From IMG/VR virus record IMGVR_UViG_3300017565_000017, positions 128,779-192,778 of that record: a DNA stretch of 64,000 nucleotides. One strand, 5' to 3'. Both the position numbers and the translations under genes were made by a program. Positions within the stretch are counted from its first letter, which is position 1; each line of letters opens with the position of its first letter. The stretch comes from a virus (lineage: Duplodnaviria; Heunggongvirae; Uroviricota; Caudoviricetes). The notes below the pieces were generated by a model, which saw only the letters and a program-made list of their open reading frames with translations, had not been told where the DNA came from and ran no database searches. Positions 1,073 to 49,537 of this stretch are shown here, in pieces.

Positions 1073-1115
1073 GGTGTAATCTCCTAATGTAGCGGCCAGG
1101 GTAGGCCGTGGGGTA

Positions 1116-1144
1116 ATTATAGCCCTGTACGGGGGCCAGGGCAA
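1116..1144 (-). promoter_or_regulatory. sigma70-type promoter for amber ORF/tRNA
   Basis: TTGCCC-17 nt-TATAAT. Confidence 0.75.
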
Positions 1145-1147
1145 GCC

Positions 1148-1345
1148 CTATTTAAAGCGGGTAAGGCTCGGGAGGGCGGCTAGTCGCTGAGCTTTTTCTT
1201 CTGCGGTAAAGAGGTGAATACGTGACATCCGCATAGAGCTGGATTGTAGTGGAATTCGCTCATACACGGCGTTGCGCGCAGAACGTGCTTTTCGCCGATA
1301 GGCTTTCCACGTCGAGTGCTTATGACGAGCATGGCGCTGCTTCAT
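1148..1345 (-). CDS. small basic hypothetical protein
   Basis: ORF coupled to upstream gene (ATGA overlap); N-terminus MKQRHARHK. Confidence 0.6.
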   Translation of the reverse strand: MKQRHARHKHSTWKAYRRKARSARNAVYERIPLQSSSMRMSRIHLFTAEEKAQRLAALPSLTRFK

Positions 1346-1596
1346 AGGCGACCTTTGTATTTCACTAGGAACGGGATCGGTCCGGTGTTGTTCGCAATGA
1401 ACTGGCGCTGGTGCTCGCGGAACTGATGCATTTGAGCTTCATCGTTAGGATCTAGGCGCTTGCCTTCCAGTTGAGCCACCGCGAATTGCATGGCTCCAAT
1501 CCGGACTAACGTCTGAGCTCGTAGCTGGATTACGTAATTGTGGACGCAGTACGATTCCCACAACTGCCTCTTATGTCTACGATGGCGCTGCTTCAT
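1342..1596 (-). CDS. hypothetical protein
   Basis: ORF with ATGA overlaps; N-terminus MKQRHRRHK. Confidence 0.65.
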   Translation of the reverse strand: MKQRHRRHKRQLWESYCVHNYVIQLRAQTLVRIGAMQFAVAQLEGKRLDPNDEAQMHQFREHQRQFIANNTGPIPFLVKYKGRL

Positions 1597-1931
1597 AGGC
1601 TTCTCATGAACTCTTGAGTGAAGCTAATAACCCAGATACCCTCCTCGTGACGCTGCGTAGGATGGGCGTAGATGTCCGTGACAGTGTGAATGCCGTGATA
1701 CGTGGACAGGGGTCCCTTAGTGGCTTCAGTTGCCGACCCCGCTGCGTGACCTTCACCTAGCGGGTAGCGATTGATAAAGTCCATCGTCAGCGCTTGACCT
1801 GCGATCAGGACAATAGTGTCCTTGGCCGATGGGTCTGCCGCGTAGGTGTCGAATTCTGACCAGGACATAAGCCGATCTGCTCGGCAAATGCCCTGACCCA
1901 ACATGATTTGAATGTCTTCGTAAGTAGTCAT
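1593..1931 (-). CDS. hypothetical protein
   Basis: ORF in coupled gene string. Confidence 0.65.
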   Translation of the reverse strand: MTTYEDIQIMLGQGICRADRLMSWSEFDTYAADPSAKDTIVLIAGQALTMDFINRYPLGEGHAAGSATEATKGPLSTYHGIHTVTDIYAHPTQRHEEGIWVISFTQEFMRSL

Positions 1932-2173
1932 TTAGGCTCGTTGTGCGCAAAGATACGCGCGAGTAGATTTATACGGAACTCCGAAGCGCTTTTGTCAGCA
2001 GATGCTTCTACCGAAGCGTGGGCCATCTTCTTGAAGATTTCGGTGATATACGCATAGTTATCACCTTTACCTTCTTCCTTAGCCTTCGCCTTAGCGTCGC
2101 TCCATTTCTTCTCCAGAGAATCAATGGAACCTTTGCCTTCGGAGGCGAGTTTTTTGATGTAAGGTACGGGCAT
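1928..2173 (-). CDS. hypothetical protein
   Basis: ORF with CAGGAG SD. Confidence 0.7.
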   Translation of the reverse strand: MPVPYIKKLASEGKGSIDSLEKKWSDAKAKAKEEGKGDNYAYITEIFKKMAHASVEASADKSASEFRINLLARIFAHNEPK

Positions 2174-2209
2174 GGTCAGCTCCTGGTCAGTTAACCTTAT
2201 AAAACTGAC

Positions 2210-2428
2210 CTAGCGCCGCAAGCTCTGGACAATACGGTCCCAATCCTCACGGGGGAACCTGGAATGGAATTCATCGTCCAAACGCTTCCATTCCTTGTCC
2301 ACTTTGGTCTGGAGTTCCTTACGGTCCTTGGGGCTTTTGGCTTTGTCCAATTCCTCAAGGAGTTCGTAGAAGGCGCAACCCTGGCCGATAGTCGTACCCT
2401 TATACTGTCTGGATTTCTTGCCGGACAT
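2210..2428 (-). CDS. hypothetical protein (start re-assigned to MSGKKS)
   Basis: GAGGA SD 5 nt before ATG at 2428; ends TAG. Confidence 0.55.
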   Translation of the reverse strand: MSGKKSRQYKGTTIGQGCAFYELLEELDKAKSPKDRKELQTKVDKEWKRLDDEFHSRFPREDWDRIVQSLRR

Positions 2429-3008
2429 AACCATCCTCACGATTGCGAACGTTCTCGTGCATACGGGGCTTGCGATCACGTAGCATCGCAATAACCTCAT
2501 CGTGGTTCCACGGCAACATCAAGTTGTCAGGGCGGTTGTCCACACCAACATCGAACATGCGCCATTCGGGGAACCGAATCACGTGGCCGTGGCTGTGACC
2601 ATGTAGGTGGTAAGCCCCGTAGTGAGCGCCATCCCACTCGTAGATGGGAAAGTGGCAGTACACCATGTGGTCCCGACCGATCGAATTGTTGACAATAAGC
2701 GGAATGTGTACGTTCTCGAACAGTTCGTACAGGTAACGGTTCCGCTTAATGACCTTATCGTGATTGCCCGGAACGAGCTCGATCTTGCCTTGGAGGCGCT
2801 TGACCACCGCCTCAATTTGTTGGGGATTACCGAAGGAGAAGTCGCCAAGGAACCAGATAGTGTCCTCGGGCTTTACCACGGAATTCCAGGCTTCGATCAG
2901 GAGCTCGCCCATTTCCTCCACAGTTTCGCCCCGGCGCGTCGCCCGAGCGAACTTGAGGATGTTGTTGTGGTCAAAGTGTGTATCTGACGTGTACCACGTA
3001 TTAGCCAT
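2400..3008 (-). CDS. calcineurin-like metallophosphoesterase
   Basis: Motifs SDTHFDH, LGDF, GNHD, HFP, HGHSHG. Confidence 0.9.
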   Translation of the reverse strand: MANTWYTSDTHFDHNNILKFARATRRGETVEEMGELLIEAWNSVVKPEDTIWFLGDFSFGNPQQIEAVVKRLQGKIELVPGNHDKVIKRNRYLYELFENVHIPLIVNNSIGRDHMVYCHFPIYEWDGAHYGAYHLHGHSHGHVIRFPEWRMFDVGVDNRPDNLMLPWNHDEVIAMLRDRKPRMHENVRNREDGYVRQEIQTV

Positions 3009-4443
3009 CGTTATAACCTAATTGTGAATAGACTTGATCCACAGACTGCCTCAGGACCCACACGCGCTGCTCACTGTCCGTTAAGGACGTGAGCGCAGCA
3101 TTTAGCGGAGTACCTTTAGCCATCATTTGGTAGAGAGGCATCAGGTCTTCGCCATAGGCGTTGGAAAGCGCAGCCGTATCACATATGATTCTATTTACGT
3201 TTTGGGGTTCGGTACGACCAATCCGCTTAATAAGCGCATAGTAGCGAGACTTCATCTTGATTAGACGTCCGGTTTCCGGATCCTGGACCACAAAACCCTC
3301 GTGACGGCAGCGCTTCAGTTCCTGACGGAGATCACCCACCAGAGCCTTGCTCGTTCCCAACAGCTCCGCATTCTGTCGGTGAGGACGAAGTGCTATAGGG
3401 GTTGCCCCACTAGCTTCAACTACAATGTGTGGGTCCGTAGGGTCGCAAATCTCAAAGAGCCACGTACATAGACCTTCCGATTTGGCTTGGATACCCTCCA
3501 GATGCTCTTTCGCCATATCTACAAAGCGCGAATCCATAGAGCCTGTGGTAGAGAACAGAGGACCGTACTTAGGATGATCCGTATACGCGGCCATGAATCC
3601 GTTGACCTTGCGAGCGTAAGTAACGCACTGGTCATCCCGGAAGCGCACTACGGGCAAAATACCCAGCGCTTCCCCCTCGGCTGCCAGCTTCGTAAACGGA
3701 TGCACTACAATGTTCCAGTTCTCGTCCACCACAAGACCACGCATTTCGATAGCCGCGTAATCCCAGAGGTTGCGGTACATGCAATCGTGTGTGTACTTCA
3801 GGATGCGCAGGCCCGGATAGTTCTTAACTTGACGCACACTGACAAGCATACGATTGGTGTCCACCCACGCTTTGAGCTGGGCCGGGTCGTAAACATTGAA
3901 TTCGGGACCGGCTACAACAGACCGCACCTTTTCAAAGCCAATGTCGTCTGGAACCCACTGTACGTCTGCGTAATAACGGCGCAGGTCCGAAACATTGATC
4001 TTGGAATGCTGTTCGCGCACAGAGTCTTCGGGGACAGCTTTGTCCCCTCGGCCTACCTGACGAGCGATACACTCGTCGAGCGGCGTATTGACGACAATCG
4101 CCCTCAGCTCGTACCCATACTGATACTTGGCGTTCACATACTTCATGCGGCGCGCGGGCGTGAGGTTGGTGGAGTCTGCGATAATGCCGACACCGGAACG
4201 CACCAGATTGGCTAAGAATGTCTTGGCGTACTGGCCGTACTCGCGGTCATTCTCGGAGCAGTATCGGAACGCGTCCCGTGCGTCCGGAGTGCGCCCTGTG
4301 CGCTTCACATAGAACTCAGCGCGGAGGTCATCATGCGAATACACCTTGTAATCCGGGTGCTGCTCCAGCAGCTTCTGGCGAATCGTTGACTTACCAGAAC
4401 CGGCTACCCCGATCAATACAATGATCTCTTTACTCATGGTCAA
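3001..4443 (-). CDS. polynucleotide kinase (AAA_33 P-loop) fused to Rnl1-type RNA ligase
   Basis: N-terminal GVAGSGKST, D-x-x-R and DSTNL; C-terminal nucleotidyltransferase motifs KVNG (I), LFEI (III), EGFVV (IV), KMK (V). Confidence 0.85.
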   Translation of the reverse strand: MTMSKEIIVLIGVAGSGKSTIRQKLLEQHPDYKVYSHDDLRAEFYVKRTGRTPDARDAFRYCSENDREYGQYAKTFLANLVRSGVGIIADSTNLTPARRMKYVNAKYQYGYELRAIVVNTPLDECIARQVGRGDKAVPEDSVREQHSKINVSDLRRYYADVQWVPDDIGFEKVRSVVAGPEFNVYDPAQLKAWVDTNRMLVSVRQVKNYPGLRILKYTHDCMYRNLWDYAAIEMRGLVVDENWNIVVHPFTKLAAEGEALGILPVVRFRDDQCVTYARKVNGFMAAYTDHPKYGPLFSTTGSMDSRFVDMAKEHLEGIQAKSEGLCTWLFEICDPTDPHIVVEASGATPIALRPHRQNAELLGTSKALVGDLRQELKRCRHEGFVVQDPETGRLIKMKSRYYALIKRIGRTEPQNVNRIICDTAALSNAYGEDLMPLYQMMAKGTPLNAALTSLTDSEQRVWVLRQSVDQVYSQLGYNDG

Positions 4444-4645: not shown

Positions 4646-4662
4646 AGTCCACGACCGGTAGA

Positions 4663-4688
4663 GAAATAAAAACGCCCCTCAGGGCGTC
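4663..4688 (-). terminator. intrinsic terminator
   Basis: GACGCCC-TGAG-GGGCGTT followed by TTTATTT. Confidence 0.7.
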
Positions 4689-4694
4689 CTAGGG

Positions 4695-5072: not shown

Positions 5073-5442
5073 GGTTTGCTCCAACTAGAATTATTTCAGT
5101 TCTCCATTCATACCCAGGTATGTCCTCGTGTGCCTGGGAATGACGCTGCAACATGCAGCCCCGTTCATTAGAAAGGGCCATCAAGACCCGTATTTCAGGA
5201 AGACCTGAACGGACATCGTACAAGTAGTCAAAATGATGCCACAGCTTCAAATCGCCCGGCACGGCCAAATACTCTTCCCGGGTGATCGTGTGAAAATTGC
5301 GCGCTTGCAGGAGGGGCCATTGAACACGTGAATGCGGCTTATCCTCGACAAACCTTACATAACCCGGACGACCGAAATTGTCCACTATCCACATATACTG
5401 ACCAACGAGTGAGTTGATCTTCAGCTTGTTTTTATCCTGCAT
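5065..5442 (-). CDS. hypothetical protein (start re-assigned to MQDKNK)
   Basis: First ATG downstream of promoter with TAAGG SD. Confidence 0.6.
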   Translation of the reverse strand: MQDKNKLKINSLVGQYMWIVDNFGRPGYVRFVEDKPHSRVQWPLLQARNFHTITREEYLAVPGDLKLWHHFDYLYDVRSGLPEIRVLMALSNERGCMLQRHSQAHEDIPGYEWRTEIILVGANHE

Positions 5443-5511
5443 GCTGCGCCTTATGCGTGGGGTAAGGGCCAGCCCATAAAGCAACGGCCCCGCATTGGTG
5501 TATACGGGGCC

Positions 5512-5540
5512 ATTATAGCGCGTTTACGGCGTTTGCGTAA
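5512..5540 (-). promoter_or_regulatory. sigma70-type promoter in TC/GA-free tract 5436-5578
   Basis: TTACGC-17 nt-TATAAT. Confidence 0.6.
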
Positions 5541-5552
5541 CGGGGTAATGGG

Positions 5553-6296
5553 CTAACCTTTAGCCCGCTGTACGGCCTCCGCCAGCGTCTTGAACTCTTG
5601 AGGTGTTGGAATGCTGTCGAAGAGTTGATATCGGCTGAACCAGCGTTTCCGGGCGCGGTCTGAGAATAGAAACCGTGACCATTCAAGCACGCTAGATGCT
5701 GCCATCAGCAGATCTTGATTCACCGACATCGGTGGCGAGACTTCCACCGGGACTGCGTAAATGGCATACCGACCTTCCGGCAGATCTGGCATCCAGAAGG
5801 CGCGCACGAACTGCTTTTCCTTCTTATCTTGGCCTCCCACTATATTGTCAACGCGCACATAGCCCATGACTTTGTCGGAGGCGTCCTGCGGGATCTTATC
5901 CAGCAGAGAAACCTCGTTCATAAGGCGGCAGAGGCGTCGTGCGTACATCAGCTTGGAAGCAGTGGCACCGAAGTCTCCGGTGATCTCTGCGTAGACGGCT
6001 ACATCTGCAAAGAAATCGTCAGACTGCAAGCCAATCTTGCGCGGGTTGAGCTTGTCCACCGACACCTGCCACGGACCGGCGTCCGGAACAGGCGGCACCT
6101 TAGCCCCGAGACCTATACGGAACGCCTGGAACAGATCATACCGGGTGTGAGGCATTTCGTCAGCGACCTGGGCCGGGGTCTTATCCCCGTGCAGTTCAAC
6201 CCACTTCTCGGAGCCGAATTCCTTAAGGTCGCTTTCCAAGAGCTCTGTGTAGAGTTGGATAAAGAGAATTTCGTCTTGCGTGTATACGCGAGCCAT
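5553..6296 (-). CDS. hypothetical protein
   Basis: 247-aa ORF abutting upstream stop. Confidence 0.7.
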   Translation of the reverse strand: MARVYTQDEILFIQLYTELLESDLKEFGSEKWVELHGDKTPAQVADEMPHTRYDLFQAFRIGLGAKVPPVPDAGPWQVSVDKLNPRKIGLQSDDFFADVAVYAEITGDFGATASKLMYARRLCRLMNEVSLLDKIPQDASDKVMGYVRVDNIVGGQDKKEKQFVRAFWMPDLPEGRYAIYAVPVEVSPPMSVNQDLLMAASSVLEWSRFLFSDRARKRWFSRYQLFDSIPTPQEFKTLAEAVQRAKG

Positions 6297-6884
6297 TTAG
6301 CCTCTGTTCATTGCGAGTTCAAAGCGAGGCTCTGCGAGCCCCGTTCCGTAGATATACTTACCCCACGGCACGGTACGGATACCGTAGGATCCTACCTCCA
6401 AGCCGTTAAGGTTGATGTCGAAACCTTCCGGCGTAGCTACTGTCACCAGATTGGCTTCGTCTTCCGGATCCAGAAACATCTGCATGCACTGGATAGCGCT
6501 GGTCATCACATCCATCAACGAATCCGCGTCAACCTCATCGTTGCGGAACAGTTCCACCTTCATGAAGGTGTACCGGTGCGTGGGGCCAAACTCACGGCCC
6601 TCGTCCCGGAAGCATGGTGTGATAGCCACGTAAGACCCAGGGCTCTGGCTCAGATTCAGCTCCAGAAAACCCTGTTCCGCGGAACCTACGAGATCGCCGT
6701 GGTAAGGAACCCCCATAAGCCGACCCGTATCCGGGCAGGTCAGGATTGAGGTATGGCGGTCGACCAGCCATGGGACGCTACTATACGTGTACCCACAGTT
6801 CTCGTAAAACTCCAAGGCCGTTGTCAGACGTTGCCAGCCTGACGAGGAAATCTTGGGGTCACTGTTACGGTAGCGCGAGATCAT
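6297..6884 (-). CDS. minimal class II aminoacyl-tRNA synthetase-like protein (SerRS-like catalytic core only)
   Basis: Motif 1 GYTYSSVPW, LVGSAEQ, motif 2 TPCFRDE...FMKVEL, motif 3 GTGLAEPRF; only 195 aa. Confidence 0.8.
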   Translation of the reverse strand: MISRYRNSDPKISSSGWQRLTTALEFYENCGYTYSSVPWLVDRHTSILTCPDTGRLMGVPYHGDLVGSAEQGFLELNLSQSPGSYVAITPCFRDEGREFGPTHRYTFMKVELFRNDEVDADSLMDVMTSAIQCMQMFLDPEDEANLVTVATPEGFDINLNGLEVGSYGIRTVPWGKYIYGTGLAEPRFELAMNRG

Positions 6885-7183
6885 GAACGTCTCCCGCTCT
6901 GGAAGGCGCGCTTGGTAGCGTCGCTCATGATGCGAATATCTTCCATGGTGATGCCCGGGTGATTCTTCGCCAAGAACGCTTCCATGGCCCCATACATATC
7001 GGCCATTTCCGCCAGGGTCATGATCTTGTTCCCTTGCAGGTATGCGTCGATCAGTTCCGACAGTTCTTCCTGGATCTTGGAGATATCACCCAGCACACCC
7101 TTCTTGATGTGCGTCGTGTGATAACCCGCAGGGCGGGTGTCCGGCAGAGGGAAAGAATCTTCAGCGGAGTGTGCCATAATCAA
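6881..7183 (-). CDS. MazG-like all-alpha NTP pyrophosphohydrolase
   Basis: KIQEELSELIDA...AEMADMYG resembles the EExxE...ExxD metal motif. Confidence 0.6.
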   Translation of the reverse strand: MIMAHSAEDSFPLPDTRPAGYHTTHIKKGVLGDISKIQEELSELIDAYLQGNKIMTLAEMADMYGAMEAFLAKNHPGITMEDIRIMSDATKRAFQSGRRS

Positions 7184-8013
7184 CCTTTACGGTGGCGGAA
7201 CGATTGTTTGAGGTCAAAACCCGCAGCCACAATCTTTTCCTTGTCGGTCATTTGGGTAGCGGGCATCGTGTCCGGGCTTTCGTTCATCGTGTTGGCGATG
7301 AAATATTCCAGGTCTTGGTAGAGCTGGTACGGATCAACAACCGATTGGAAATCATGCTCTTGGAGGACCGGCAGATAGTAGCCGATGTGGTACGAAACTT
7401 CCGTCTGCTTGGTCGTCTGTGCGGGGCCAAAGATGCTGAACACCGGAGCTTGCAGCTTGCGGTGAATAGCCAGCAGCGTCTCCCCTCCGTCGATGGGGGT
7501 CGAGAACCGGGCGCGGGCCGCGTTACTCATGAGGGGCCATGCCGCGTGACCTTCGTGCAGCAGCGTATAGGATTTAGGATCATCCTCGACCCGGCGCTTA
7601 CGCTCTCGGGTTTCCCCAACTTGGCGCTCACGCTCTTCTTCTGTCATGCCCTTGCGCCCGATAACTGCGTACACCTTGCCCGCGACAGCAATCCAGTATG
7701 TGTCGTATTGACTCAGACGAGACGCAAAGTCCTTCTTGGTCTTCTTGTCCAGAGGACGGCCTTCTTCATCGACTTCCCGATAATCTAGGGAGCGACTCAC
7801 CCACGAGTATTTGCGGTACGGGGAATAGATATCGATGAGGCCGAGCCCCGCCGAAGTACCCTCCACGGTGGTCACGAACGTCGGGTGACGGTTTAGAAAG
7901 TAGGGGTTCGGAGCGCCTTCAAAGGCACGCCGGACATATGTATGCTTCTCGTCACGACCATGGACGTGGCTGACGAAGTCATAGAAATCACGGAAGGGGC
8001 TGAGAATTTTCAT
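7180..8013 (-). CDS. phage hypothetical protein (start MKILSPFRDFYD)
   Basis: Long ORF; MKI-x-S-x-F-x-D-[FY]-YD type N-terminus recalled from phage hypotheticals. Confidence 0.7.
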   Translation of the reverse strand: MKILSPFRDFYDFVSHVHGRDEKHTYVRRAFEGAPNPYFLNRHPTFVTTVEGTSAGLGLIDIYSPYRKYSWVSRSLDYREVDEEGRPLDKKTKKDFASRLSQYDTYWIAVAGKVYAVIGRKGMTEEERERQVGETRERKRRVEDDPKSYTLLHEGHAAWPLMSNAARARFSTPIDGGETLLAIHRKLQAPVFSIFGPAQTTKQTEVSYHIGYYLPVLQEHDFQSVVDPYQLYQDLEYFIANTMNESPDTMPATQMTDKEKIVAAGFDLKQSFRHRKG

Positions 8014-8185
8014 CAGGCTTATATCGCTCTTTTCCAGTGCCTCCGCAGCAGCCACAATACGGGCTGCCGTCAGAGTCGTAGTATCCAGAACCGCTACACG
8101 CCGTGCAGGGTCTGAGCTTCCAGCCCTTCACCTGCTTCTCGTAGTACTCAGTTCGTTGGCGTTTGCGCTCGGCGAAGTTGTTCAA
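7988..8185 (-). CDS. small DnaJ-type zinc-finger protein
   Basis: CTACSGSG...CGCCGGTG repeats. Confidence 0.65.
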   Translation of the reverse strand: MNNFAERKRQRTEYYEKQVKGWKLRPCTACSGSGYYDSDGSPYCGCCGGTGKERYKPDENSQPLP

Positions 8186-8438
8186 TTGCTTCCTTGGAGG
8201 CTGCGTAGACGCAGGTCACGACCTGACCGTCACGGTTGAATTTGACGCCACCGAAAGCTTGATGGGAATGTACGGGGAAGCGCACATACACTACACCATC
8301 ATAGCAGTATTCGTCGGCAGTGAAGTTTTCCACGACCTTACCCTCGGACGTGAGATACTTAGGAGTTTCCTTGGAGCTGGAAGTGGATTCACCACAACCT
8401 ACCAGAGCCAGCAGACCGACCAACAACAGTTTCTTCAT
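8148..8438 (-). CDS. lipoprotein
   Basis: MKKLLLVGLLALVG-C lipobox. Confidence 0.75.
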   Translation of the reverse strand: MKKLLLVGLLALVGCGESTSSSKETPKYLTSEGKVVENFTADEYCYDGVVYVRFPVHSHQAFGGVKFNRDGQVVTCVYAASKEAIEQLRRAQTPTN

Positions 8439-8447
8439 CTGGGTTCC

Positions 8448-8687
8448 TTATACTTCGCGGGGCCAGCCCCGACAGATGGGGATTTGCGCCTTATCATGGA
8501 CGAACCACGCTCGGTTCACCTCGTGGCGGGGCATGAATTGCGACAGAGTGGCCCCTGCCCGCTCCTTAGGTGTAGCAAGACGCATACGCTTGCGTGCTGC
8601 TTCACTGATAAGTGCGCGCAGATGCTCAACGTTGAGGTTGCGCTCCAGCTCGACCAGCGGCTGATTGAGGTTGATTTCCATGGTCAT
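8448..8687 (-). CDS. hypothetical protein
   Basis: ATGA overlap with upstream stop (MTMEINL). Confidence 0.55.
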   Translation of the reverse strand: MTMEINLNQPLVELERNLNVEHLRALISEAARKRMRLATPKERAGATLSQFMPRHEVNRAWFVHDKAQIPICRGWPREV

Positions 8688-8935
8688 TGGCCGTTGCAAG
8701 TGCGGGGCTTGCCTTCCGGCGTGACTGCTACAGTCACCGCCTGGACAGCCGCCGTCCTGGAACTCACCCATTTGTAGTGAACGATGCCGTCGACGCATAC
8801 TCTTGCCGGATTGTCCTGGTAGAGCGACGAAGCTGAAGCGTGGGCTTTGGGTTGGTAGACGCCCAAGAGGGTTCCAAAGGAACCAGCCACGACAACTCCC
8901 AGCAAGACCTTCAAACCGAGCAGCTTCATGTTCAT
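8684..8935 (-). CDS. exported small protein
   Basis: Signal-like N-terminus ending AHA; two Cys. Confidence 0.65.
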   Translation of the reverse strand: MNMKLLGLKVLLGVVVAGSFGTLLGVYQPKAHASASSLYQDNPARVCVDGIVHYKWVSSRTAAVQAVTVAVTPEGKPRTCNGQ

Positions 8936-8964
8936 GGGGTATCCTATACGGTTAGGAGTTAGGG

Positions 8965-9279
8965 TTACGCACGAAGCATTGAGCTAAAGCTCCTCCGCAC
9001 GTCGATTACGGTTGTTTCACAAAACTCTGCACGAGCTCTGTTGTATAGGCCAGCAAGCTGCGAAGCTGATAGAGCTCCCACGAGCGTTAATCGTGGAAGG
9101 GTCCGCAACGAGTTAAGGGTGTAAGGTGTGTATAAGACCGCTTCGGTGCGAATCAACTTAGACCAAGCTAGTTGATCCCTGGAAGCAACCACGATAATAC
9201 CGCCACACAGCCGGAAATGGAGCTCCAACTCTGTATCGGCTACGGGGCCGACTCCCTGGAAAAACCTAACTTCCTTCAC
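8965..9279 (-). CDS. hypothetical protein (GTG start downstream of promoter)
   Basis: AGGTGG SD + GTG at 9279. Confidence 0.45.
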   Translation of the reverse strand: MKEVRFFQGVGPVADTELELHFRLCGGIIVVASRDQLAWSKLIRTEAVLYTPYTLNSLRTLPRLTLVGALSASQLAGLYNRARAEFCETTVIDVRRSFSSMLRA

Positions 9280-9300
9280 AGCTTGCCACCTATTAAAACA

Positions 9301-9329
9301 ATTATACGCCAAAACGGCCCCCATGTAAA
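9301..9329 (-). promoter_or_regulatory. sigma70-type promoter in TC/GA-free tract 9277-9366
   Basis: TTTACA-17 nt-TATAAT. Confidence 0.8.
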
Positions 9330-9360
9330 GCGGGGCCGTGCCTAGCTACAGTTAACCTAG

Positions 9361-9792
9361 TTAGTGATTACGGATACTGCTCGATATTTCTTGAGCACGT
9401 TTACGAGCGGCGTCTGCATGCTCTTTATTCTTACGATCTGCCCTAGCCTGTCTAGCAGCCGCCGAGTCCGGAACCAACGGGAAATCGAACACCCGACCTA
9501 GCCACTTGAAGAGACGGTGGAACAGATGAGGTCCCGCGTGGAACACGGCACACACCAGATTCGCAACCGGCACGCCAATTGTCAAGATCCAGCCTAGGAT
9601 ACGACCTACCGTCAGTGTGGGTACGTAGTAGTCAGATTCTTCCCGGTGCTTCACATCAATGGCGTATTCCTTAATGAATTGCTTGGCGAAGTACACCGCG
9701 CAAATCACAAGAGGCAGCCAGTACAGCAGCAGACCCCAGATAACCGAATTGTCGATCATGAACTGCGGAATAATGCTAGTAAGTTTTTCCAT
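9361..9792 (-). CDS. membrane protein
   Basis: Two hydrophobic segments, basic C-terminus. Confidence 0.7.
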   Translation of the reverse strand: MEKLTSIIPQFMIDNSVIWGLLLYWLPLVICAVYFAKQFIKEYAIDVKHREESDYYVPTLTVGRILGWILTIGVPVANLVCAVFHAGPHLFHRLFKWLGRVFDFPLVPDSAAARQARADRKNKEHADAARKRAQEISSSIRNH

Positions 9793-10223
9793 TAACTATT
9801 AACCTCCGGAAGTAGATCCTGGACACCTAGGGAAACAAATGCGGCCTCTACTTTCTTCTGCACGTCTGCGGCCACGCTAGGATCCACAGCGATATGCAAG
9901 CAGCGTAGAGCCTTTCGGGCTTCCTCTACGGCTGGGTTATTCGACATAGGGGGCTCAACGATCTGTTCCAGGTGAGCCTTAACCCCGTCAGCCTTGGCCT
10001 TCCACAGCAGGGTCTCCAGCTTCTTATCGCGTTTAATATTTGGAGCCCACGCCATGAAGGCGTCACCCCATTCACCGAACCAGCGCCCGCTGACCTGGAT
10101 ACCGCCGATTGTCAGCAACTGCACTTTGGACCCGCGATCAGATGGAGGCTCATAGTTCCAGTGAATTGAACCAGGCTCTGCCGCTACATAATTTCGAATA
10201 GAAAACTGAGTAGAATCAGACAT
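9792..10223 (-). CDS. hypothetical protein
   Basis: Coupled ORF. Confidence 0.65.
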   Translation of the reverse strand: MSDSTQFSIRNYVAAEPGSIHWNYEPPSDRGSKVQLLTIGGIQVSGRWFGEWGDAFMAWAPNIKRDKKLETLLWKAKADGVKAHLEQIVEPPMSNNPAVEEARKALRCLHIAVDPSVAADVQKKVEAAFVSLGVQDLLPEVNS

Positions 10224-10758
10224 TGTCTACCTCATTGAACCAAGTTGGTACTTCCGTTTCCGGCCATTGCGCTATATCACGCTTGTGAATTCTGTAGTAA
10301 TTTCGGTACGATTGAACCACGGAATCTACTTTACAATCATCCGGCATTGCCAGAGGCCTTGGAGTTTTGCCGATGTCCGGCAGAGAAACAAGGTTCTCAG
10401 GCAAATTCTGCAAAACGATACTAGACTTGTGAATTTTGCCGTATCTTCTGGTGTACACTGCACCAAGTTCTATCCCTAGAGCTCGTAGAAGTGCGTAGTT
10501 GTCTTGGCTCTGGCGTACCCACACTGCACACGGATGATTCTTGTGAGTTATCAGAAATGGAGAGCCCTCGGATCTAGAGGGCCTCCCAGTTTCACTATTC
10601 AGTGTTTCCCCAGACATTAGACCTGCGGTACCTCCTATGGACATACGCACCGCCGTGGACAATAGTTGTGCGTACTCGGTGATCATTTTCACCACGTGCT
10701 TATTGCAGTGGTCCGAAGCACAGCGCTCTAGATCATCATCAAGCCAGAATATATTCAC
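10216..10758 (-). CDS. pyrimidine-dimer DNA glycosylase (DenV-related family)
   Basis: MNIF-x-LD...KHVVKMITEYAQLLSTA...THKNHPCAVW...RYGKIHKS signature. Confidence 0.75.
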   Translation of the reverse strand: MNIFWLDDDLERCASDHCNKHVVKMITEYAQLLSTAVRMSIGGTAGLMSGETLNSETGRPSRSEGSPFLITHKNHPCAVWVRQSQDNYALLRALGIELGAVYTRRYGKIHKSSIVLQNLPENLVSLPDIGKTPRPLAMPDDCKVDSVVQSYRNYYRIHKRDIAQWPETEVPTWFNEVDNV

Positions 10759-10769
10759 AGCCTATACTC

Positions 10770-10795
10770 AAAAAGAAGGAGCCCCGTGAGGCTCC
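10770..10795 (-). terminator. intrinsic terminator
   Basis: GGAGCC-TCACGG-GGCTCC then TTCTTTTT. Confidence 0.75.
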
Positions 10796-10820
10796 AGGTA
10801 CAGTTATTTAGGGTCTGGAT

Positions 10821-11891: not shown

Positions 11892-11905
11892 AGGTACAGT
11901 CCTAT

Positions 11906-12352
11906 TCAGTCATTACTGAGGATCGTCTGGACCAGGGCAGAGAGTTCCTTGCCCGGATACAGATTGCCCACGCGGGCGCGCACCGGCTTCATGAGGGTAG
12001 CCATGTTAACCGGCTGGCCCTCAGGGATCTTGCGCGCTTCTTCCACGATGACGACGATGACTTCGTCTTCCGTCATTTGCTTGGGCAGGAATTGGCTGAT
12101 GAAAGCCACTTCTGCCAATTCTTGGGCGGCTTTGTCGCCAGCGCCACCCTTAAGGAACTGCTGTGCCGCGTCCTTGCGCTTGGCCGATTCCTTGACCAGC
12201 AAGGCAATACCCTCGTCCTCGGTCAGTTCGTGGCCGAGCTCAATTGCCTTGTTCTGGAAGGCGCTCACCAGCATCTGGAGCAGGGTGATCGTGTCCTGGT
12301 TCTTGGCACGGCGGGCTTCCACCAGCATCACCCGCAGTTGGTGAATGGTCAT
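11906..12352 (-). CDS. yqeY: GatB/YqeY domain protein
   Basis: A-x-x-AK...LL-x-ML...KRKDAAQQF-x-x-GG...ELAEV-x-F-I-x-x-FLPKQMTEDEV...NMATLMK. Confidence 0.85.
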   Translation of the reverse strand: MTIHQLRVMLVEARRAKNQDTITLLQMLVSAFQNKAIELGHELTEDEGIALLVKESAKRKDAAQQFLKGGAGDKAAQELAEVAFISQFLPKQMTEDEVIVVIVEEARKIPEGQPVNMATLMKPVRARVGNLYPGKELSALVQTILSND

Positions 12353-16264: not shown

Positions 16265-16340
16265 AATAAGCTCCGAGGGTCGACCCGGATTCCAGGACGA
16301 CCCTCTTATTTTGGGTTATAGGCTAGGGGTTACAGTATGT

Positions 16341-16370
16341 ATTATACCGCAGTTTGCAGGTTTGCGGTAA
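16341..16370 (-). promoter_or_regulatory. promoter in TC/GA-free tract 16305-16386
   Basis: TATAAT at 16341-16346 overlapping the upstream stop. Confidence 0.55.
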
Positions 16371-16662
16371 TTTGCGTAAGCCACGGAAGTAGTTCTTGGA
16401 CCTTCTTGTCAAAAGCGTTCACGTAAGCCTTGAAGTCCTCTTCGTAGGTGGTATCAGGATCGTAATACTCCAGGCTTAGGCCCAACGTGTCCAGACACGC
16501 ATGAACTTGCTTCGACATCTTGAAACCGATCTCGAATTTGGTTTCCCACGAGGCGTCTTCCAGATTGAACAGCAGCATAGTCAAGCGATGCAATTCCAGA
16601 AGCTCATGGGCCGCTCTCTTGATCGAGTCTGTGTACAGTTCCTCGGTGTTTTCATCTACCAT
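16342..16662 (-). CDS. hypothetical protein
   Basis: Coupled ORF. Confidence 0.65.
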   Translation of the reverse strand: MVDENTEELYTDSIKRAAHELLELHRLTMLLFNLEDASWETKFEIGFKMSKQVHACLDTLGLSLEYYDPDTTYEEDFKAYVNAFDKKVQELLPWLTQITANLQTAV

Positions 16663-18506: not shown

Positions 18507-18549
18507 TGATTCCTCTGTAAACGCGGTTAACAGGGTATGTATTTACGGC

Positions 18550-18558
18550 ATTATACCA
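18550..18558 (-). promoter_or_regulatory. extended -10 promoter in TC/GA-free tract 18515-18599
   Basis: TGG-TATAAT. Confidence 0.6.
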
Positions 18559-18576
18559 TGTGCCGCGCTATACCGC

Positions 18577-19104
18577 CTAGCGCATTACCGGGCGCTGCTC
18601 TATGACGCGCACTTGGTCCATACGTAGCTCCCAGAAAGTAGCTTGGACTAGGACCTCACCCAGGCGAGGGCGCTCTCGGGCAGTACGCCACTCTAGATCT
18701 AGAACCAGTCTTTCCCAGAGCGATCTTTGACGGGCGTTTGCGGTTTGCCCGTTGAGGACAAGGTGCCAGAGGTGGTAGTCCGAGAGGAGGACGTGGTCGT
18801 CGGGGAGCTCGATTTCGAGGAAAACGTTGTTGACTGTCCAGAACTTGGAGCGACGTTTATAACGCGCCCATTCTTCATATGCCACGACATGATCTCTCCA
18901 CGCCCAGAGGGGGTACTGGTTAGGGTCAACTGGATCCGGCTTAACACCGCGCTTGCGCATTTGTTCGCGCATCCAGTCGTAAGCAAACTTGAAATTATCG
19001 CCGTCCGGTTCGGCGGCGGAGGTTACAGAAAGGGGTGCCCGAAGCACCCCCGTCTTTTGAAGCTCACGCCACGCACTAGCGGACTGGCTAGTCCACAGCT
19101 TCAT
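18577..19104 (-). CDS. DUF3841-like protein
   Basis: MKLWT-x-Q...AYDWM-x-x-QM...YPLWAW...VLLSDY-x-x-WH-x-VLN...QAT-x-WEL. Confidence 0.65.
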   Translation of the reverse strand: MKLWTSQSASAWRELQKTGVLRAPLSVTSAAEPDGDNFKFAYDWMREQMRKRGVKPDPVDPNQYPLWAWRDHVVAYEEWARYKRRSKFWTVNNVFLEIELPDDHVLLSDYHLWHLVLNGQTANARQRSLWERLVLDLEWRTARERPRLGEVLVQATFWELRMDQVRVIEQRPVMR

Positions 19105-20689: not shown

Positions 20690-20808
20690 CCTTTATTACG
20701 GTTTGCGCTAGGGCGCGGGGTAGTGGGGTATTACACGCCTAATTATACAGGGCCGCGCCGTAAAACACCATAGCCAGCGCGGCCCTGTTGCGCAAAAATT
20801 ACACAAGT
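20690..20808 (-). promoter_or_regulatory. TC/GA-free promoter tract, TATAAT at 20742-20747
   Basis: Manual scan; tract ends at AAGGAG SD. Confidence 0.65.
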
Positions 20809-21062
20809 CGCTTGAGAGGCTCGCGGAAGCTCTGAGCGCGACTCGTGCCTGACACAGCCAAGGGCTCCGGCTGGTTGCTGGCGCTAAAAGCGCGGGCGCA
20901 AGGGCGGCAAACGCCCGTAAGCGTTTGCGTATGCGTTTGGCCGTAGGCGGTACGGGTGCGGGTAGCGCTAAAGCCTAAAACCGCCTTACGGGCGCATTTG
21001 GGGCATTGCAGGCGCGGGGCCAGGGTAACGGCTACGGTGCGGTTAATAGGGGTTACGGTCAT
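20799..21062 (-). CDS. small zinc-finger protein
   Basis: CPKC...CRPC. Confidence 0.5.
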   Translation of the reverse strand: MTVTPINRTVAVTLAPRLQCPKCARKAVLGFSATRTRTAYGQTHTQTLTGVCRPCARAFSASNQPEPLAVSGTSRAQSFREPLKRLV

Positions 21063-25557: not shown

Positions 25558-25770
25558 TTAGGGTTGTCGGCTGAGCTTTTCGAGCTCACGGCAGAGAGTG
25601 CCAATTTTCCCCTGATGCTGGCGAATCTGCTTGAAGCGCACAGGAACAGGGAGCTTGGGGTCTTGCAAATCTACCAGGATATTCGTTTGGAACTGAAGGA
25701 TGCGAGCCTGAATCGCCAAGGCCCGTACGACCTTGTCGGTGGCAGACTGCTGTTCGGGGGGTTGCTGCAT
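25558..25770 (-). CDS. hypothetical protein
   Basis: First ORF after promoter tract. Confidence 0.55.
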   Translation of the reverse strand: MQQPPEQQSATDKVVRALAIQARILQFQTNILVDLQDPKLPVPVRFKQIRQHQGKIGTLCRELEKLSRQP

Positions 25771-25876
25771 GGGGTTGCGCCTATACGGTTAGGGCGGTGG
25801 GGTAAGGGCCAGTATACAACAAATACGGCCCTATTTGGTGGGGGCTTGCTTTTTATTTTTGGGCGGGTAGTAAACG
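25755..25876 (-). promoter_or_regulatory. TC/GA-free promoter tract, TATACT at 25811-25816
   Basis: Manual scan. Confidence 0.55.
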
Positions 25877-26901: not shown

Positions 26902-26940
26902 GAACTTTACAAGGGGGTAAAGGGGGTTTAGGGCTTTGCC

Positions 26941-26969
26941 ATTATACGGCACGGCCCTAGCCCCGGCAA
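26941..26969 (-). promoter_or_regulatory. sigma70-type promoter in TC/GA-free tract 26903-26994
   Basis: TTGCCG-17 nt-TATAAT. Confidence 0.75.
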
Positions 26970-26983
26970 CCCTTATTTACAAG

Positions 26984-27946
26984 TTAGCGCGCTTCCCAGC
27001 GAGCCCGGCGACGGACCTTACGGAAAAAGGTTTGGACTTGCGCAGCAGTAACGCCGAAATACCGCTGGACTTTCGATTGATAAGTTGTGAATTGAACGCG
27101 CTCCACCAGCACGGAATTGTCAGTGCCAAGATGCTCACTGAACTTCTTGTCGTATTGGCCGCTAAGAATCCAGAGGAATTTGCGGGCGCGTTTGGTCATG
27201 TACGGTTCGACCTTAGATAATGCTGTGAGACCCTCTTTCAGGAAGTTCTCGGGTTCTGCCTTCTGCTCCAGTTGTAGACCCGGGGTATCATACGGAACTA
27301 GAACATTGCTGTAGGTGCCGTCCGAATTCTTCACGATACGTTGGCGCGACTGAGTGGTTTGCTCCTTAATCAGGGACTGGCCGCTATCCTTAATCGCAGA
27401 CTTGGCAACGTTCACCATGTGCATGTGATTCTCGAAGAACGGATAGCGGCGATACAGTGCGTAGATTGCGGCCAGCTTCTCCCGCTGGGAGATATCCTGA
27501 CGGCCTTCCACGTAAGACTTAACGATGAAGGTATGCTTGCGAGTCGTGAACTTACCAATGTAGTCGTCGATCTTACGGCTAGTAAGGAACGCCATTTCCG
27601 AGCGAAACTGCGCTATTGAGTACGCCGGGTACTTGGGGTCAATATGGCTCAAGTCCAGAGCACGCAGTCTGCGAGCATCACCTTTGCTAACACCATATTC
27701 CAGACGTGAGGGCAGGTCACGACCTTCTAGCCGTGCCTTGTGAACTGCGTAGGCGTACAGCTTACAGTTGAGTAGAATGTACCCGGAACTATCCATTGTA
27801 GCTTTTGCCTCAATGCCATCCTGAAACATCTTGCGGAATTGGGCGTTGTCGATGTAACGGAACAGATACATGAACATTGCATTGAACTGTTCGGGGGTCA
27901 GTTCGTATCCCATAGCTTCAGTAACAGACTGGGCTTCCTTGCGCAT
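26984..27946 (-). CDS. putative divergent sigma-factor-like transcription protein
   Basis: DISQREKLAAIYAL-x-x-x-YP...VAKSAI...LIKEQTTQSRQR weakly resembles sigma region 2. Confidence 0.35.
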   Translation of the reverse strand: MRKEAQSVTEAMGYELTPEQFNAMFMYLFRYIDNAQFRKMFQDGIEAKATMDSSGYILLNCKLYAYAVHKARLEGRDLPSRLEYGVSKGDARRLRALDLSHIDPKYPAYSIAQFRSEMAFLTSRKIDDYIGKFTTRKHTFIVKSYVEGRQDISQREKLAAIYALYRRYPFFENHMHMVNVAKSAIKDSGQSLIKEQTTQSRQRIVKNSDGTYSNVLVPYDTPGLQLEQKAEPENFLKEGLTALSKVEPYMTKRARKFLWILSGQYDKKFSEHLGTDNSVLVERVQFTTYQSKVQRYFGVTAAQVQTFFRKVRRRARWEAR

Positions 27947-41657: not shown

Positions 41658-41810
41658 CCCTTACGGTTGGGGTTTAGGTAGGCGCGTAGGGGTACACGCC
41701 GGTATACGTATTATATACCCGCGCCCCGTAAAACGCTATTACGCTTATGTAACTATAGCCCTAGCGGTACGGGTAAGGGCTACATAATACCCCGTTGTTT
41801 GTAGTAATGG
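41658..41810 (-). promoter_or_regulatory. 153-nt TC/GA-free promoter tract, TATAAT at 41710-41715
   Basis: Manual scan; tract ends at GGGAG SD. Confidence 0.65.
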
Positions 41811-42928: not shown

Positions 42929-42934
42929 CTGGAC

Positions 42935-44719: not shown

Positions 44720-44721
44720 GG

Positions 44722-46670: not shown

Positions 46671-47104
46671 GAACGTCTCCGGAGTAGACCCTGGCGCTCA
46701 TCCGCGAGATCAGAGTCAGTCATATATTGAGGCCCCATCTTATTACCGACGGGGCCAACTCGGGCCTGCATTTCCTTGGTACGCTGGAGGGCGGCGGCTT
46801 CGCGCTCTGCCATTTCACCATCGTATTTCGGTTCTGCGACCACCTTGGGGGCCGGGTCGGCCTTGGCCGGTAGGCGCTGGTTAATCGCCATATTAAGGCG
46901 CGGGCCAAAGCGCATCAATTGCGCCGTTTGTGCGGCCTTTTGGCGGATACCTGGGGCCGCAGTAGTGCCGGGGCGGGCAAAGCCCCCGGTAAGGCTACGC
47001 AAGCGCTTTAGGTTTTGCGCCAGAGCCTTATCAAGGACTTCATGCTCCCGGAGCTTGCGCTCCCGATCCCGTTGTGCCAGCAATTTCTGTCGTTTTGATG
47101 CCAT
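46667..47104 (-). CDS. basic hypothetical protein
   Basis: GGAAAG SD; Arg/Ala-rich. Confidence 0.65.
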   Translation of the reverse strand: MASKRQKLLAQRDRERKLREHEVLDKALAQNLKRLRSLTGGFARPGTTAAPGIRQKAAQTAQLMRFGPRLNMAINQRLPAKADPAPKVVAEPKYDGEMAEREAAALQRTKEMQARVGPVGNKMGPQYMTDSDLADERQGLLRRRS

Positions 47105-47859: not shown

Positions 47860-47863
47860 GCGC

Positions 47864-48214
47864 TTAACCTCCGATGAAGATCATGTTGTGGTGGACCGAA
47901 ATCGGCACGTAGGCACCCATAGCCGACAGACCCGGCTTCTCGTAGTACTCGGTGAGGAACTCGTTGGCCTGCTTGGGGGTAATTTTCAGGCAGCCGCGCA
48001 CCCGATAGTTCACGTCGGTGGGAGTTCCATGGGCGACGCTCGGGACTTCATGACGAACATGGAGCAGTAGAGCTCGGCCCGTACCATGGGTCGCAAACTT
48101 CAGGATCTTGCGCGTTTCGGTAACGGAGGCGATACCCTGGACCGAAGCTTCTGCCTCGCTCTGGGGCAGAACGGGCAGCGTGTCAAGGGTGAGGATTTGG
48201 TTGGGAGTGGTCAT
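47864..48214 (-). CDS. hypothetical protein
   Basis: First gene after promoter. Confidence 0.6.
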   Translation of the reverse strand: MTTPNQILTLDTLPVLPQSEAEASVQGIASVTETRKILKFATHGTGRALLLHVRHEVPSVAHGTPTDVNYRVRGCLKITPKQANEFLTEYYEKPGLSAMGAYVPISVHHNMIFIGG

Positions 48215-48253
48215 GCAGAACCTATACAGCTAGGGGGTTTACGGGTTAGGCAA

Positions 48254-48282
48254 ATAATACAGCGCCGGGGCCGGTATGTAAA
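48254..48282 (-). promoter_or_regulatory. sigma70-type promoter in TC/GA-free tract 48219-48297
   Basis: TTTACA-17 nt-TATTAT. Confidence 0.7.
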
Positions 48283-48285
48283 GGG

Positions 48286-48756
48286 TTAAGCGGGCTGAAC
48301 GGCGTATCGCTTCTGGAAGTCTTCAACGTTCACGAAGGATTTGAATTCGTCCAATGACTGGGTGTCGTGAAGCTCAATGGAGCCATCCGCCATACGCCGA
48401 ATCGCCATGCGACCCGCACCTACGTAAGTGACGCCGCTGACAGAAATGGCGGTAACGAGGCGTTCCAGGGTTTCCGGAGTCAGGAAATCCAAGCAGTCTT
48501 CCCGAGCATACGCCTTGCGGAAGTTTTCCAGGGAGGAGAAAAGCTCATCCTGGCTGCGGAAGCCACCTACGGGGACGCGGGTAATGGATACCGACTGGTC
48601 ACCGGGCAGACGGGTCACTTCATAAGTGTGAGTGTCGTCCACAAATGCGATGAGTTGCTGACCTCCCCAGGGGAGCAGAGTAAGCATATCGGCAAGGTGG
48701 AGGGCGAGGGAACGCGTGAGAAGAATGCCGACTTCGGGGTCGCGGGACAGACTCAT
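48286..48756 (-). CDS. hypothetical protein
   Basis: AGGAT SD; first gene after promoter. Confidence 0.7.
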   Translation of the reverse strand: MSLSRDPEVGILLTRSLALHLADMLTLLPWGGQQLIAFVDDTHTYEVTRLPGDQSVSITRVPVGGFRSQDELFSSLENFRKAYAREDCLDFLTPETLERLVTAISVSGVTYVGAGRMAIRRMADGSIELHDTQSLDEFKSFVNVEDFQKRYAVQPA

Positions 48757-48793
48757 TTGAATATCCTATACGGTTAGGGTTTACGGTGTAGCT

Positions 48794-48822
48794 ATTATAT
48801 AGCGGCTGGCCCATAAACGCAA
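48794..48822 (-). promoter_or_regulatory. sigma70-type promoter in TC/GA-free tract 48765-48868
   Basis: TTGCGT-17 nt-TATAAT. Confidence 0.7.
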
Positions 48823-48854
48823 ACGGGGCAAGCCCTTTTTATAGGCTTGCCCCG
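48822..48854 (-). terminator. hairpin terminator immediately upstream of promoter
   Basis: CGGGGCAAGCC-TATAAAAAG-GGCTTGCCCCG then TTTG. Confidence 0.65.
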
Positions 48855-48859
48855 GTGTT

Positions 48860-49537
48860 TTAGGCGCGACCGATAGCGCGGTTCAGCATCGCAACAGTCT
48901 TGGGGAAGTTATCCGAATCCAGGACATGCAGCAGATACAGAACTTGGCGCTTGCGCAATTGGTCTTGCGACTGTACTTCGTTCTTGACGTCGATATCGTC
49001 TTTGCCGTCAGCGAGACGATCAGCCCACGCCTTAAAGCGGGGTTCCAGGCCGTTTGCCGGGTCTTCCGATTCTTGCGACTTGCCGTTGAGGCTAATGTAT
49101 TCCTCAGGCTGGTCAACCTTACCATCTTGACCAACGATGGTGACGTTAGCCATGGCGATAGTGCGGGCGGAACCGGCTGCGGCGACGTTATCTTCCTTGG
49201 CTTTCAGGCGAGCGTGCTCACGCTTGGCTTCCGGCTTTGCCAGAAGGCGCGTGGCCGTCTGGTCGTCGATCAGAACAATCAGCTCCTTAAATAGAGCATC
49301 GCGGAATTCATTGCTCGTAAGAATTTGCTCACGTGTAAACTTGATGTTAACGCGCTGAGGGAGCCACGTTTGTAGGATCACCAGAGGATCCGTACGGTCA
49401 CCACGTAGTTGCTGGATACCGATAATAATATTACCGGCGTCTCGAATACGTGAGCGCTTACTGTTGTTTAGGACCCAAATGGGTTCGTTGGGTTTTTGAG
49501 CCTCAACGTCGAAAATACTTAGAGTCTTGACTGCCAT
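48860..49537 (-). CDS. hypothetical protein
   Basis: AAGGA SD; 225 aa. Confidence 0.75.
   Translation of the reverse strand: MAVKTLSIFDVEAQKPNEPIWVLNNSKRSRIRDAGNIIIGIQQLRGDRTDPLVILQTWLPQRVNIKFTREQILTSNEFRDALFKELIVLIDDQTATRLLAKPEAKREHARLKAKEDNVAAAGSARTIAMANVTIVGQDGKVDQPEEYISLNGKSQESEDPANGLEPRFKAWADRLADGKDDIDVKNEVQSQDQLRKRQVLYLLHVLDSDNFPKTVAMLNRAIGRA

Follow-up and report, generated by a model that had tools for sequence, protein, structure and literature searches.

The 64,000-nt stretch analysed here, which we call the window, covers positions 128779-192778 of the 242,859-bp virus record IMGVR_UViG_3300017565_000017, a 243-kb genome that is rated complete and belongs to an uncultivated jumbo (giant) phage. 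It is punctuated by predicted promoters from which the dinucleotide TC and its complement GA are missing altogether, and genes for a probable dUMP hydroxymethylase and a clade-1 aGPT-Pplase lie at its far end (Table 1). An island is defined here as a run of at least 75 nt without any TC or GA; such a run is free of the step on both strands. Twelve of these runs had been listed in an earlier note on this DNA, and a script returned all of them at identical coordinates and lengths, together with two that the note had overlooked, the stretches of 193 and 77 nt in Table 1. In each of the twelve, TATAAT, TATACT or TATTAT follows a -35-like hexamer at a distance of 16-18 bp; the note had described a TATAAT-like -10 box in each. 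Its further remarks also held: several runs terminate at the ribosome-binding site (GGAG or AGGA), islands can take in the final codons of the preceding gene, and TG/CA is present in them rather than avoided. Its figure of 9-11 TC/GA per 60 nt of coding sequence proved somewhat high, the genome mean being 7.8.

Table 1. Islands, genes and a candidate promoter word, in window coordinates unless given as genome positions.
Feature	Position	Strand
Island with promoter TTGCCC-17-TATAAT, ending at an AGGAG ribosome-binding site	1083..1168	-
Island of 143 nt with TATAAT; GA-free TAAGG ribosome-binding site ahead of ATG	5436..5578	-
Island with promoter TTTACA-17-TATAAT behind a terminator-like hairpin	9277..9366	-
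Longest island (206 nt): ~70 nt of upstream gene tail, TATAAT promoter and leader to AAGGAA	13282..13487	-
Island with TATAAT promoter	16305..16386	-
Island with TATAAT promoter, ending at AGAGGA	18515..18599	-
Island with TATAAT promoter, ending at AAGGAG	20690..20808	-
TC/GA-free stretch of 193 nt, no clear promoter; overlaps an 87-codon open reading frame of uncertain coding status	20867..21059	-
Island with TATACT promoter and CCGTATAGG box ahead of ATG	25755..25876	-
Island with promoter TTGCCG-17-TATAAT	26903..26994	-
Island of 153 nt with TATAAT promoter; TC/GA-free in the 83% relative too, despite 30 substitutions between the orthologs	41658..41810	-
TC/GA-free stretch of 77 nt, no strong promoter; orthologous island in a relative	46947..47023	-
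Island with promoter TTTACA-17-TATTAT and CTGTATAGG box	48219..48297	-
Island with terminator hairpin, promoter TTGCGT-17-TATAAT and CCGTATAGG box	48765..48868	-
Phage sigma factor (phrog_17569), presumably for non-island (middle/late) promoters	58979..59950	-
Thymidylate-synthase-family enzyme, probable dUMP hydroxymethylase, 44% identical to M6 gp58	62295..63359	-
Clade-1 aGPT-Pplase / HMUDK_hel protein, 327 amino acids; C-terminal 201 codons and stop in the window	63393..64000	-
NGTAAATA sites	genome 171675, 192168 (window 63390), 195523, 196706, 209843, 227449, 233274, others	

The 87-codon open reading frame under the 193-nt stretch (window 20799-21062, strand -) was not called by the codon-usage caller and may be non-coding. 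Its predicted product has two CxxC pairs and about 64 residues without Asp or Glu.

Genome-wide dinucleotide counting, which the earlier note had suggested as a check, bore the pattern out. There are 51 TC/GA-free runs of at least 75 nt against about one expected from a geometric model at a TC+GA density of 0.129 per base, while the five other two-member dinucleotide pairs of near-equal density gave 0-3 such runs each. Seventeen of the TC/GA-free runs are longer than 108 nt, the length expected once per 100 such genomes. Within 5.5 kb of islands no TC or GA is seen where local base composition predicts about 665, and the composition of the islands is itself ordinary, with TG/CA (odds 0.83) and AG/CT both occurring in them. 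The purge is real, far beyond chance and specific to one dinucleotide pair. Elsewhere the step is not scarce: the GA/TC odds stand at 1.04 for the whole genome and at 1.05-1.09 for coding sequence, and early coding DNA (1.09) shows no depletion, so this is not the genome-wide under-representation of restriction-type short-word avoidance. Intergenic statistics are approximate because the gene calls come from a simple codon-usage caller that misses small genes and tRNAs.

The islands fall into three clusters (genome 0-13.5 kb, 80-178 kb and 231-243 kb) that together make up about 120 kb, and the structural and replication regions (genome 14-80 and 178-231 kb) hold none. All 51 are dispersed, and do not form the single contiguous terminal block of a T5-like first-step transfer.

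The relation of the islands to promoters is close. About 40 contain a good match to a sigma70-type promoter, with TTGCNN or TTTACA at -35, TATAAT or TATACT at -10 and 17 bp between the two, and most others contain a weaker version; 39 score well as predicted promoters, with -35 and -10 hexamers 16-18 bp apart and co-oriented with downstream genes or tRNAs. The consensus hexamer TTGACA, which contains GA, is never found as an island -35 box. When these 39 islands were aligned on the -10 box, TC and GA each fell from about 0.7 per 10 nt to 0-0.1 over positions -45 to +30 (counted from the first base of the box), with identical profiles for the two and background regained on both flanks. At the median an island starts 23 nt before the -35 box and stops 37 nt past the -10 box (roughly -58 to +30), and the purged span of about -57 to +20/+30 has approximately the size of the footprint of a promoter-bound RNA polymerase. 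Where two promoters diverge (genome 234271-234470), the islands start 2-6 nt ahead of their respective -35 boxes, so the strict requirement begins at that box. Some islands also cover the first codons of the downstream gene. The promoters of tRNA operons upstream of the window (genome 119051-119110, 121640-121717 and 116127-116254) likewise sit inside islands, each of which ends at the first bases of the tRNA.

The purge has also left its imprint on translation signals. A GA-free ribosome-binding box (TATAGG, TAAGG) precedes 17 of the 33 genes behind islands as against 39 of the 276 others, 184 of which have a GA-containing site. The CCGTATAGG-type box found 6-10 nt ahead of early-gene start codons is such a GA-free box, and its conservation in leaders would be explained by the purge, which would favour a GA-avoiding ribosome-binding site inside the protected zone. 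This, and the usual extension of islands across the whole 5' leader as far as the start codon, might suggest avoidance at the level of RNA, with early leaders escaping a nuclease or defence directed at RNA, for example a CmdT-like ADP-ribosyltransferase acting on GA in mRNA. We regard this as very improbable. The untranscribed positions ahead of the predicted start (-57 to -1) are purged just as fully; on one and the same strand TC is lost as much as GA, where a strand-specific purge confined to the transcript would be looked for; and early coding sequences, which are also mRNA, are undepleted. Equal loss of TC and GA across the polymerase footprint speaks for an effect on duplex DNA rather than on RNA.

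Regions served by other promoters look different. Late intergenic regions have normal TC/GA density, contain GGAG sites and carry another candidate promoter word, NGTAAATA. As the purge lies on promoters while coding and late regions are normal, the constraint is on initiation at host-type promoters on duplex DNA. Many non-early genes, among them those for the thymidylate synthase and the kinase described below, have NGTAAATA 13-60 nt ahead of them, in surroundings of normal TC/GA content; similar to the T4 late promoter TATAAATA, the word is a candidate promoter for the phage's sigma factor.

Comparison with relatives addressed whether the islands are maintained. Megablast of 8 kb of the window against a phage collection found no close relatives among cultured phages, and a single-protein terminase scan of IMG/VR gave no match; the relatives discussed here are uncultivated contigs found through their terminase and named by its percentage identity. 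In the 83% relative, islands stand at the same promoters as in this phage. Four orthologous pairs have diverged by 15, 19, 30 and 33 substitutions plus indels, with both copies still TC/GA-free; under random substitution the respective chances of this are 0.0053, 0.0018, <5e-5 and 1e-4 (combined P <1e-12). Selection keeps the islands TC/GA-free in relatives.

This comparison bears directly on the idea that the islands have no function, being either duplicates of a single ancestral promoter-leader module from which TC/GA was missing by chance or a by-product of base composition. Islands do have short boxes in common, among them CCCTAACC and CCGTATAGG, as copying would predict. Outside these boxes, however, the islands are dissimilar, the absence of all 665 predicted TC and GA is not accounted for by composition, the coding tails inside islands are TC/GA-free as well, and the orthologous pairs have accumulated their 15-33 substitutions without creating a single TC or GA. 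We find this explanation hardly credible.

Other relatives have 6-12 islands each, with 12 in 8 kb of the early region of a 249-kb relative and 8 in the 63% relative. The 69% relative (JGI contig Ga0596950_0000013, GC content 45%) has islands of 184 and 123 nt, and its GA/TC odds ratio is 0.67 over about 32 kb, coding DNA included, so that the word is avoided everywhere. The 54% relative has no islands in 32 kb, and radical-SAM and GTP cyclohydrolase I genes (fragment positions 1864-3369) replace its thymidylate synthase and clade-1 Pplase genes. This gene content suggests a 7-deazapurine-type pathway, and DNA-modification modules that look swapped at one locus. The genomes of RSL1, Motura, M6, phiW-14, ViI, 9g and CAjan have no such islands for any dinucleotide.

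What might make a two-base step harmful at a promoter is suggested by the gene content. Adjoining genes encode the thymidylate-synthase-family enzyme, the clade-1 aGPT-Pplase, two HAD phosphatases and a dimeric dUTPase-family enzyme. The first of these (PF00303, E=1.5e-18; phrog_5131, E=6.6e-101) is, from its similarity to M6 gp58, a probable dUMP hydroxymethylase rather than a methylase. The clade-1 aGPT-Pplase (PF18723, E=2.4e-40), whose gene starts at window coordinate 64376, 376 nt past the window end, is 35% identical to M6 gp55 and 48% to RSL1 ORF231, and also matches phiW-14 gp72. In RSL1, ORF232-238 (fragment positions 5678-11915) lie beside the synthase and clade-1 Pplase and encode three glycosyltransferases, two sugar nucleotidyltransferases, a sulfotransferase and an APS kinase; this whole block is lacking in the present phage, and hints that the 5-hydroxymethyluracil (5hmU) of RSL1 is glycosylated and possibly sulfated.

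A third component, a kinase-like protein of 430 amino acids, is encoded 39 kb past the window end (genome 231923-233215). It is matched (E=1.7e-8) by a profile of M6 gp54, phiW-14 gp37 and ViI gp67, built from experimentally validated kinases of 5-hydroxymethyl-deoxyuridine (5-hmdU) in DNA (PMC8989533, Table 1). The reverse profile recovers M6 gp54 and the phiW-14 and ViI open reading frames where gp37, gp67 and gp243 are expected, and phrog_800, to which M6 gp54 belongs, is a further match of the protein (E=1.5e-14). The protein model has a polynucleotide-kinase-like fold, and a solved-structure search returned kinase folds only, in alignments of about the length of the N-terminal domain. By remote similarity, the N-terminal half (residues 1-200) would be a P-loop kinase like the 5-hmdU DNA kinases (5-HMUDK), whereas the C-terminal half of about 230 residues had no match in any genome searched by profile. 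Only seven homologues were found among 5.8 billion proteins, and the two for which surrounding DNA was fetched are both on island-bearing contigs. RSL1 has the thymidylate synthase and clade-1 Pplase without the kinase, Motura has none of the three genes, and neither has islands. The islands co-occur with this clade-specific, 5-HMUDK-like predicted kinase.

Directly upstream of the kinase gene, and outside the window, lies a non-coding stretch of 600 nt (genome 233,290-233,890) with 22 GATC, as against a genome mean of 2.8 per 600 nt and 9 in the next-best window. It has many AGATCT and GGATCC words, GCAGCAGGAGAG-type repeats and about twice the mean TC/GA content. In this respect it is the opposite of an island, and it might act as an origin or as a site of packaging or loading.

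The earlier note had placed a 5-hmdU pathway in the window; this stands for the synthase and the clade-1 Pplase, but the kinase lies well beyond it and a clade-2 aGPT-Pplase (the amine or amino-acid transferase) was found neither by tblastn with M6 gp51 on a six-frame translation nor with a profile of M6 gp51 and its phiW-14 homologue. The note's alternative of 7-deazaguanine at GA finds no support, as neither TGT/DpdA (PF01702) nor FolE (PF01227) is present in the genome, and 9g and CAjan are themselves island-free. The DNA methyltransferase families PF01555 (N6/N4), PF02086 (D12) and PF00145 (C5) are absent, other or novel families not having been searched, and no Tet/JBP enzyme is found in the genome, which leaves methylation and Tet/JBP oxidation unsupported as the source of a mark. 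Two AAA_33 kinases (genome 85030-85578; window 3001-4437) were rejected as DNA base kinases since they look like polynucleotide-kinase/RNA-repair enzymes. The predicted 5-hmdU pathway is the only DNA-modification machinery found.

These searches also bear on the possibility that a covalent mark at TC/GA is excluded from promoters but sits on C, A or G rather than on T, placed there by an unrecognised enzyme. Sequence alone cannot single out one of the four bases of the step, many of the ~309 genes have no assigned function, and phages of the 9g/CAjan type reportedly mark the G in GA. Against this stand the missing TGT/DpdA, FolE, methyltransferase and Tet/JBP enzymes, and the presence of a predicted 5-hmdU pathway whose kinase co-varies with the islands. 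A mark on a base other than T appears to us improbable.

If TC/GA sites bear a protective mark, restriction sites that contain TC or GA need no avoidance, and the avoided palindromes of this genome provide a further line of evidence. Genome-wide, 16 six-base palindromes are strongly avoided, and none of them contains TC or GA (p=0.0066); examples, as observed/expected, are GGCGCC (2/72), GGGCCC (2/55), CCGCGG (6/65), GCCGGC (6/64) and GGTACC (6/52). Because the avoided sites are GC-biased, the comparison was also limited to GC-rich palindromes, of which 14 of the 24 without TC/GA are depleted as against none of the 8 with it (Fisher p=0.0044), the strongest depletion reaching an observed/expected ratio of 0.03. 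The corresponding figures are 4 of 8 with TC/GA depleted in Motura, and 0 of 8 versus 4 of 24 in RSL1. The sample is small, and the result goes the way predicted by a protective TC/GA mark. The avoidance of palindromes as such suggests a GC-rich host that exerts heavy restriction pressure. In ViI none of 10 strongly depleted six-base palindromes contains TC/GA (p=0.046), while in M6 and Motura the strongest depletion falls on palindromes that do contain the step.

The palindromes also help in weighing the main rival, in which there is no covalent mark and promoters are harmed by a protein that reads TC/GA in duplex DNA, be it a phage or host nuclease, a deaminase, a silencer or a DNA-coating protein. 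The strand symmetry of the islands and the selection on them would fit any reader of duplex DNA, and the odds ratio of the 69% relative looks like general avoidance of a harmful word. In the present phage, however, TC/GA is not avoided outside promoters (odds 1.04-1.09), which makes a nuclease or deaminase hard to reconcile with the data, and the sparing of TC/GA palindromes from restriction-site avoidance is left unexplained. In addition, we know of no DNA-binding protein of two-base specificity. Taken together, a protein reader seems to us unlikely, less so than the other alternatives. A deaminase-type TC-to-TT mutational footprint was considered separately and ruled out, the depletion being absolute, strand-symmetric, bounded by promoters and missing from coding DNA.

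The reading that we favour, and hold to be somewhat more probable than not, is that T in TC is hypermodified and that the early promoters are modification-exclusion islands. Thymidine would be replaced by 5-hmdU during replication through the thymidylate-synthase-like dUMP hydroxymethylase and the dUTPase- and HAD-type nucleotide enzymes, and hypermodification after replication would take place only where the base precedes C (5'-TC-3', which reads GA on the complementary strand). In the window about 29% of T stands before C. The clade-specific 430-residue kinase-like protein probably sets the context, with the clade-1 aGPT-Pplase as its probable partner. The bulky or charged major-groove group would keep the host's sigma70 RNA polymerase, itself unmodified, from binding and opening promoters as it reads the injected DNA. 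Selection would then strip every TC and GA from the polymerase-contacted stretch of each early promoter, from about -57 to +20/+30, and promoters would be reshaped, with TTGCNN or TTTACA in place of TTGACA and often TATAGG or TAAGG in place of GGAG. Elongation through modified DNA would be tolerated, leaving coding DNA normal, and late promoters, presumably read with the phage's own sigma factor, would not be purged.

Several of these steps have precedents. Partial hypermodification of thymidine has been described as dependent on sequence context (PMC8989533), and 5mYOX97, a phage dioxygenase that modifies T, prefers NTC (PMC13229309). Bulky groups in the major groove stop the RNA polymerases of E. 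coli and B. subtilis at initiation (PMC4838386), and 5hmU itself is tolerated or even stimulatory (PMC11550810).

A number of points weigh against this reading. M6, ViI and phiW-14, which have the kinase, the transferase and proven hypermodification, show no dinucleotide-free islands; the same is true of 9g and CAjan, whose modified base is the G of GA, and of seven IMG/VR contigs with kinase domains 31-39% identical to that of this phage. Since hypermodified reference phages and distant kinase carriers alike lack islands, the strategy would be peculiar to this clade and not general. The kinase match is remote (31 bits), neither BLAST nor profile search found a clade-2 transferase for the pathway, and the palindrome test rests on 8 versus 24 words only. 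Some islands, at 100-200 nt, extend well past a polymerase footprint and a few have no recognisable promoter, while the transcription start sites are predicted from sequence, not mapped. We infer from the sequence, too, the DNA modification itself, its position on T in TC, the setting of context by the kinase and the inhibition of RNA polymerase.

The earlier note had proposed that the genome is modified at TC or GA and that promoters for host RNA polymerase are kept free of the modification, citing the contexts reported for M6, ViI and phiW-14. The footprint-sized and symmetric purge, the selection, the 5-hmdU genes, the co-occurring kinase and the spared palindromes all agree with the proposal, whereas the cited phages themselves have no such islands. 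Refined to T in TC, with the clade-specific kinase as the likely source of context, it is to our mind the best available explanation, with a slightly better than even chance of being right. We give an even chance to the broader view that this clade of jumbo phages writes its early promoters in a TC/GA-free alphabet, with a TC-specific, kinase-initiated mark elsewhere and some 50 polymerase footprints left as plain DNA.

Were this reading true, the phage would have a sequence-encoded epigenetic partition of its genome, the inverse of a CpG island, and both the context of a modifying enzyme and the sensitivity of sigma70 RNA polymerase to its mark could be read from sequence alone. Two questions would be answered: which thymidines are modified (those in TC), and whether the host polymerase copes with the mark (it does not, and promoters are rewritten). 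The reading would account for two oddities, the non-consensus -35 boxes and the GA-free ribosome-binding boxes, and it yields a concrete enzyme, the 430-residue kinase fusion, along with about 50 natural modification-free promoters for which late promoters provide the contrast. Footprint-sized dinucleotide-free islands would also be a simple signature for context-specific DNA marks in uncultivated viruses. Whatever the mark proves to be, such strong selection on a two-base step at promoters calls for explanation.

The closest known systems are the pathways of M6, ViI, phiW-14, SP10 and PaMx11 (Lee et al. 2018, PMC5889632; 2021, PMC8989533), which share with this phage the thymidylate-synthase-family, kinase-like and clade-1 building blocks. 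Phages of the M6/ViI/phiW-14 type modify only a sequence-dependent share of T, for which a TG/TC context, ascribed to the kinase, has been proposed (PMC6449724). Unlike them, the present phage has no clade-2 transferase that we could find, and its kinase-like domain is fused to a C-terminal region of about 230 residues seen only in this clade. The most important difference is that M6, ViI and phiW-14 have no dinucleotide-free promoter islands and this phage does. The dioxygenase 5mYOX97 is a phage enzyme that picks T in TC on duplex DNA, where it marks about a quarter of all T (PMC13229309); its family (Tet/JBP) is absent here, and the 5hmU of this phage is presumably made before replication.

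Our literature search found no description of dinucleotide-free promoter islands, but two better-known phenomena invite comparison. Short-word avoidance, as in the avoidance of restriction sites or GATC and in the EcoRI-free first-step-transfer DNA of T5, follows the same principle, the removal of a word to bar an enzyme. Here, by contrast, the word has two bases and is removed from about 50 dispersed, polymerase-footprint stretches rather than from a whole genome or a terminal block, and the enzyme to be kept out most likely belongs to the phage itself. Vertebrate CpG islands, for their part, are likewise promoters free of a genome-wide mark and visible as a dinucleotide anomaly at promoters. 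CpG islands, however, are rich in the target and shielded from the enzyme, whereas the phage islands are without the target, the exclusion being encoded in the sequence itself.

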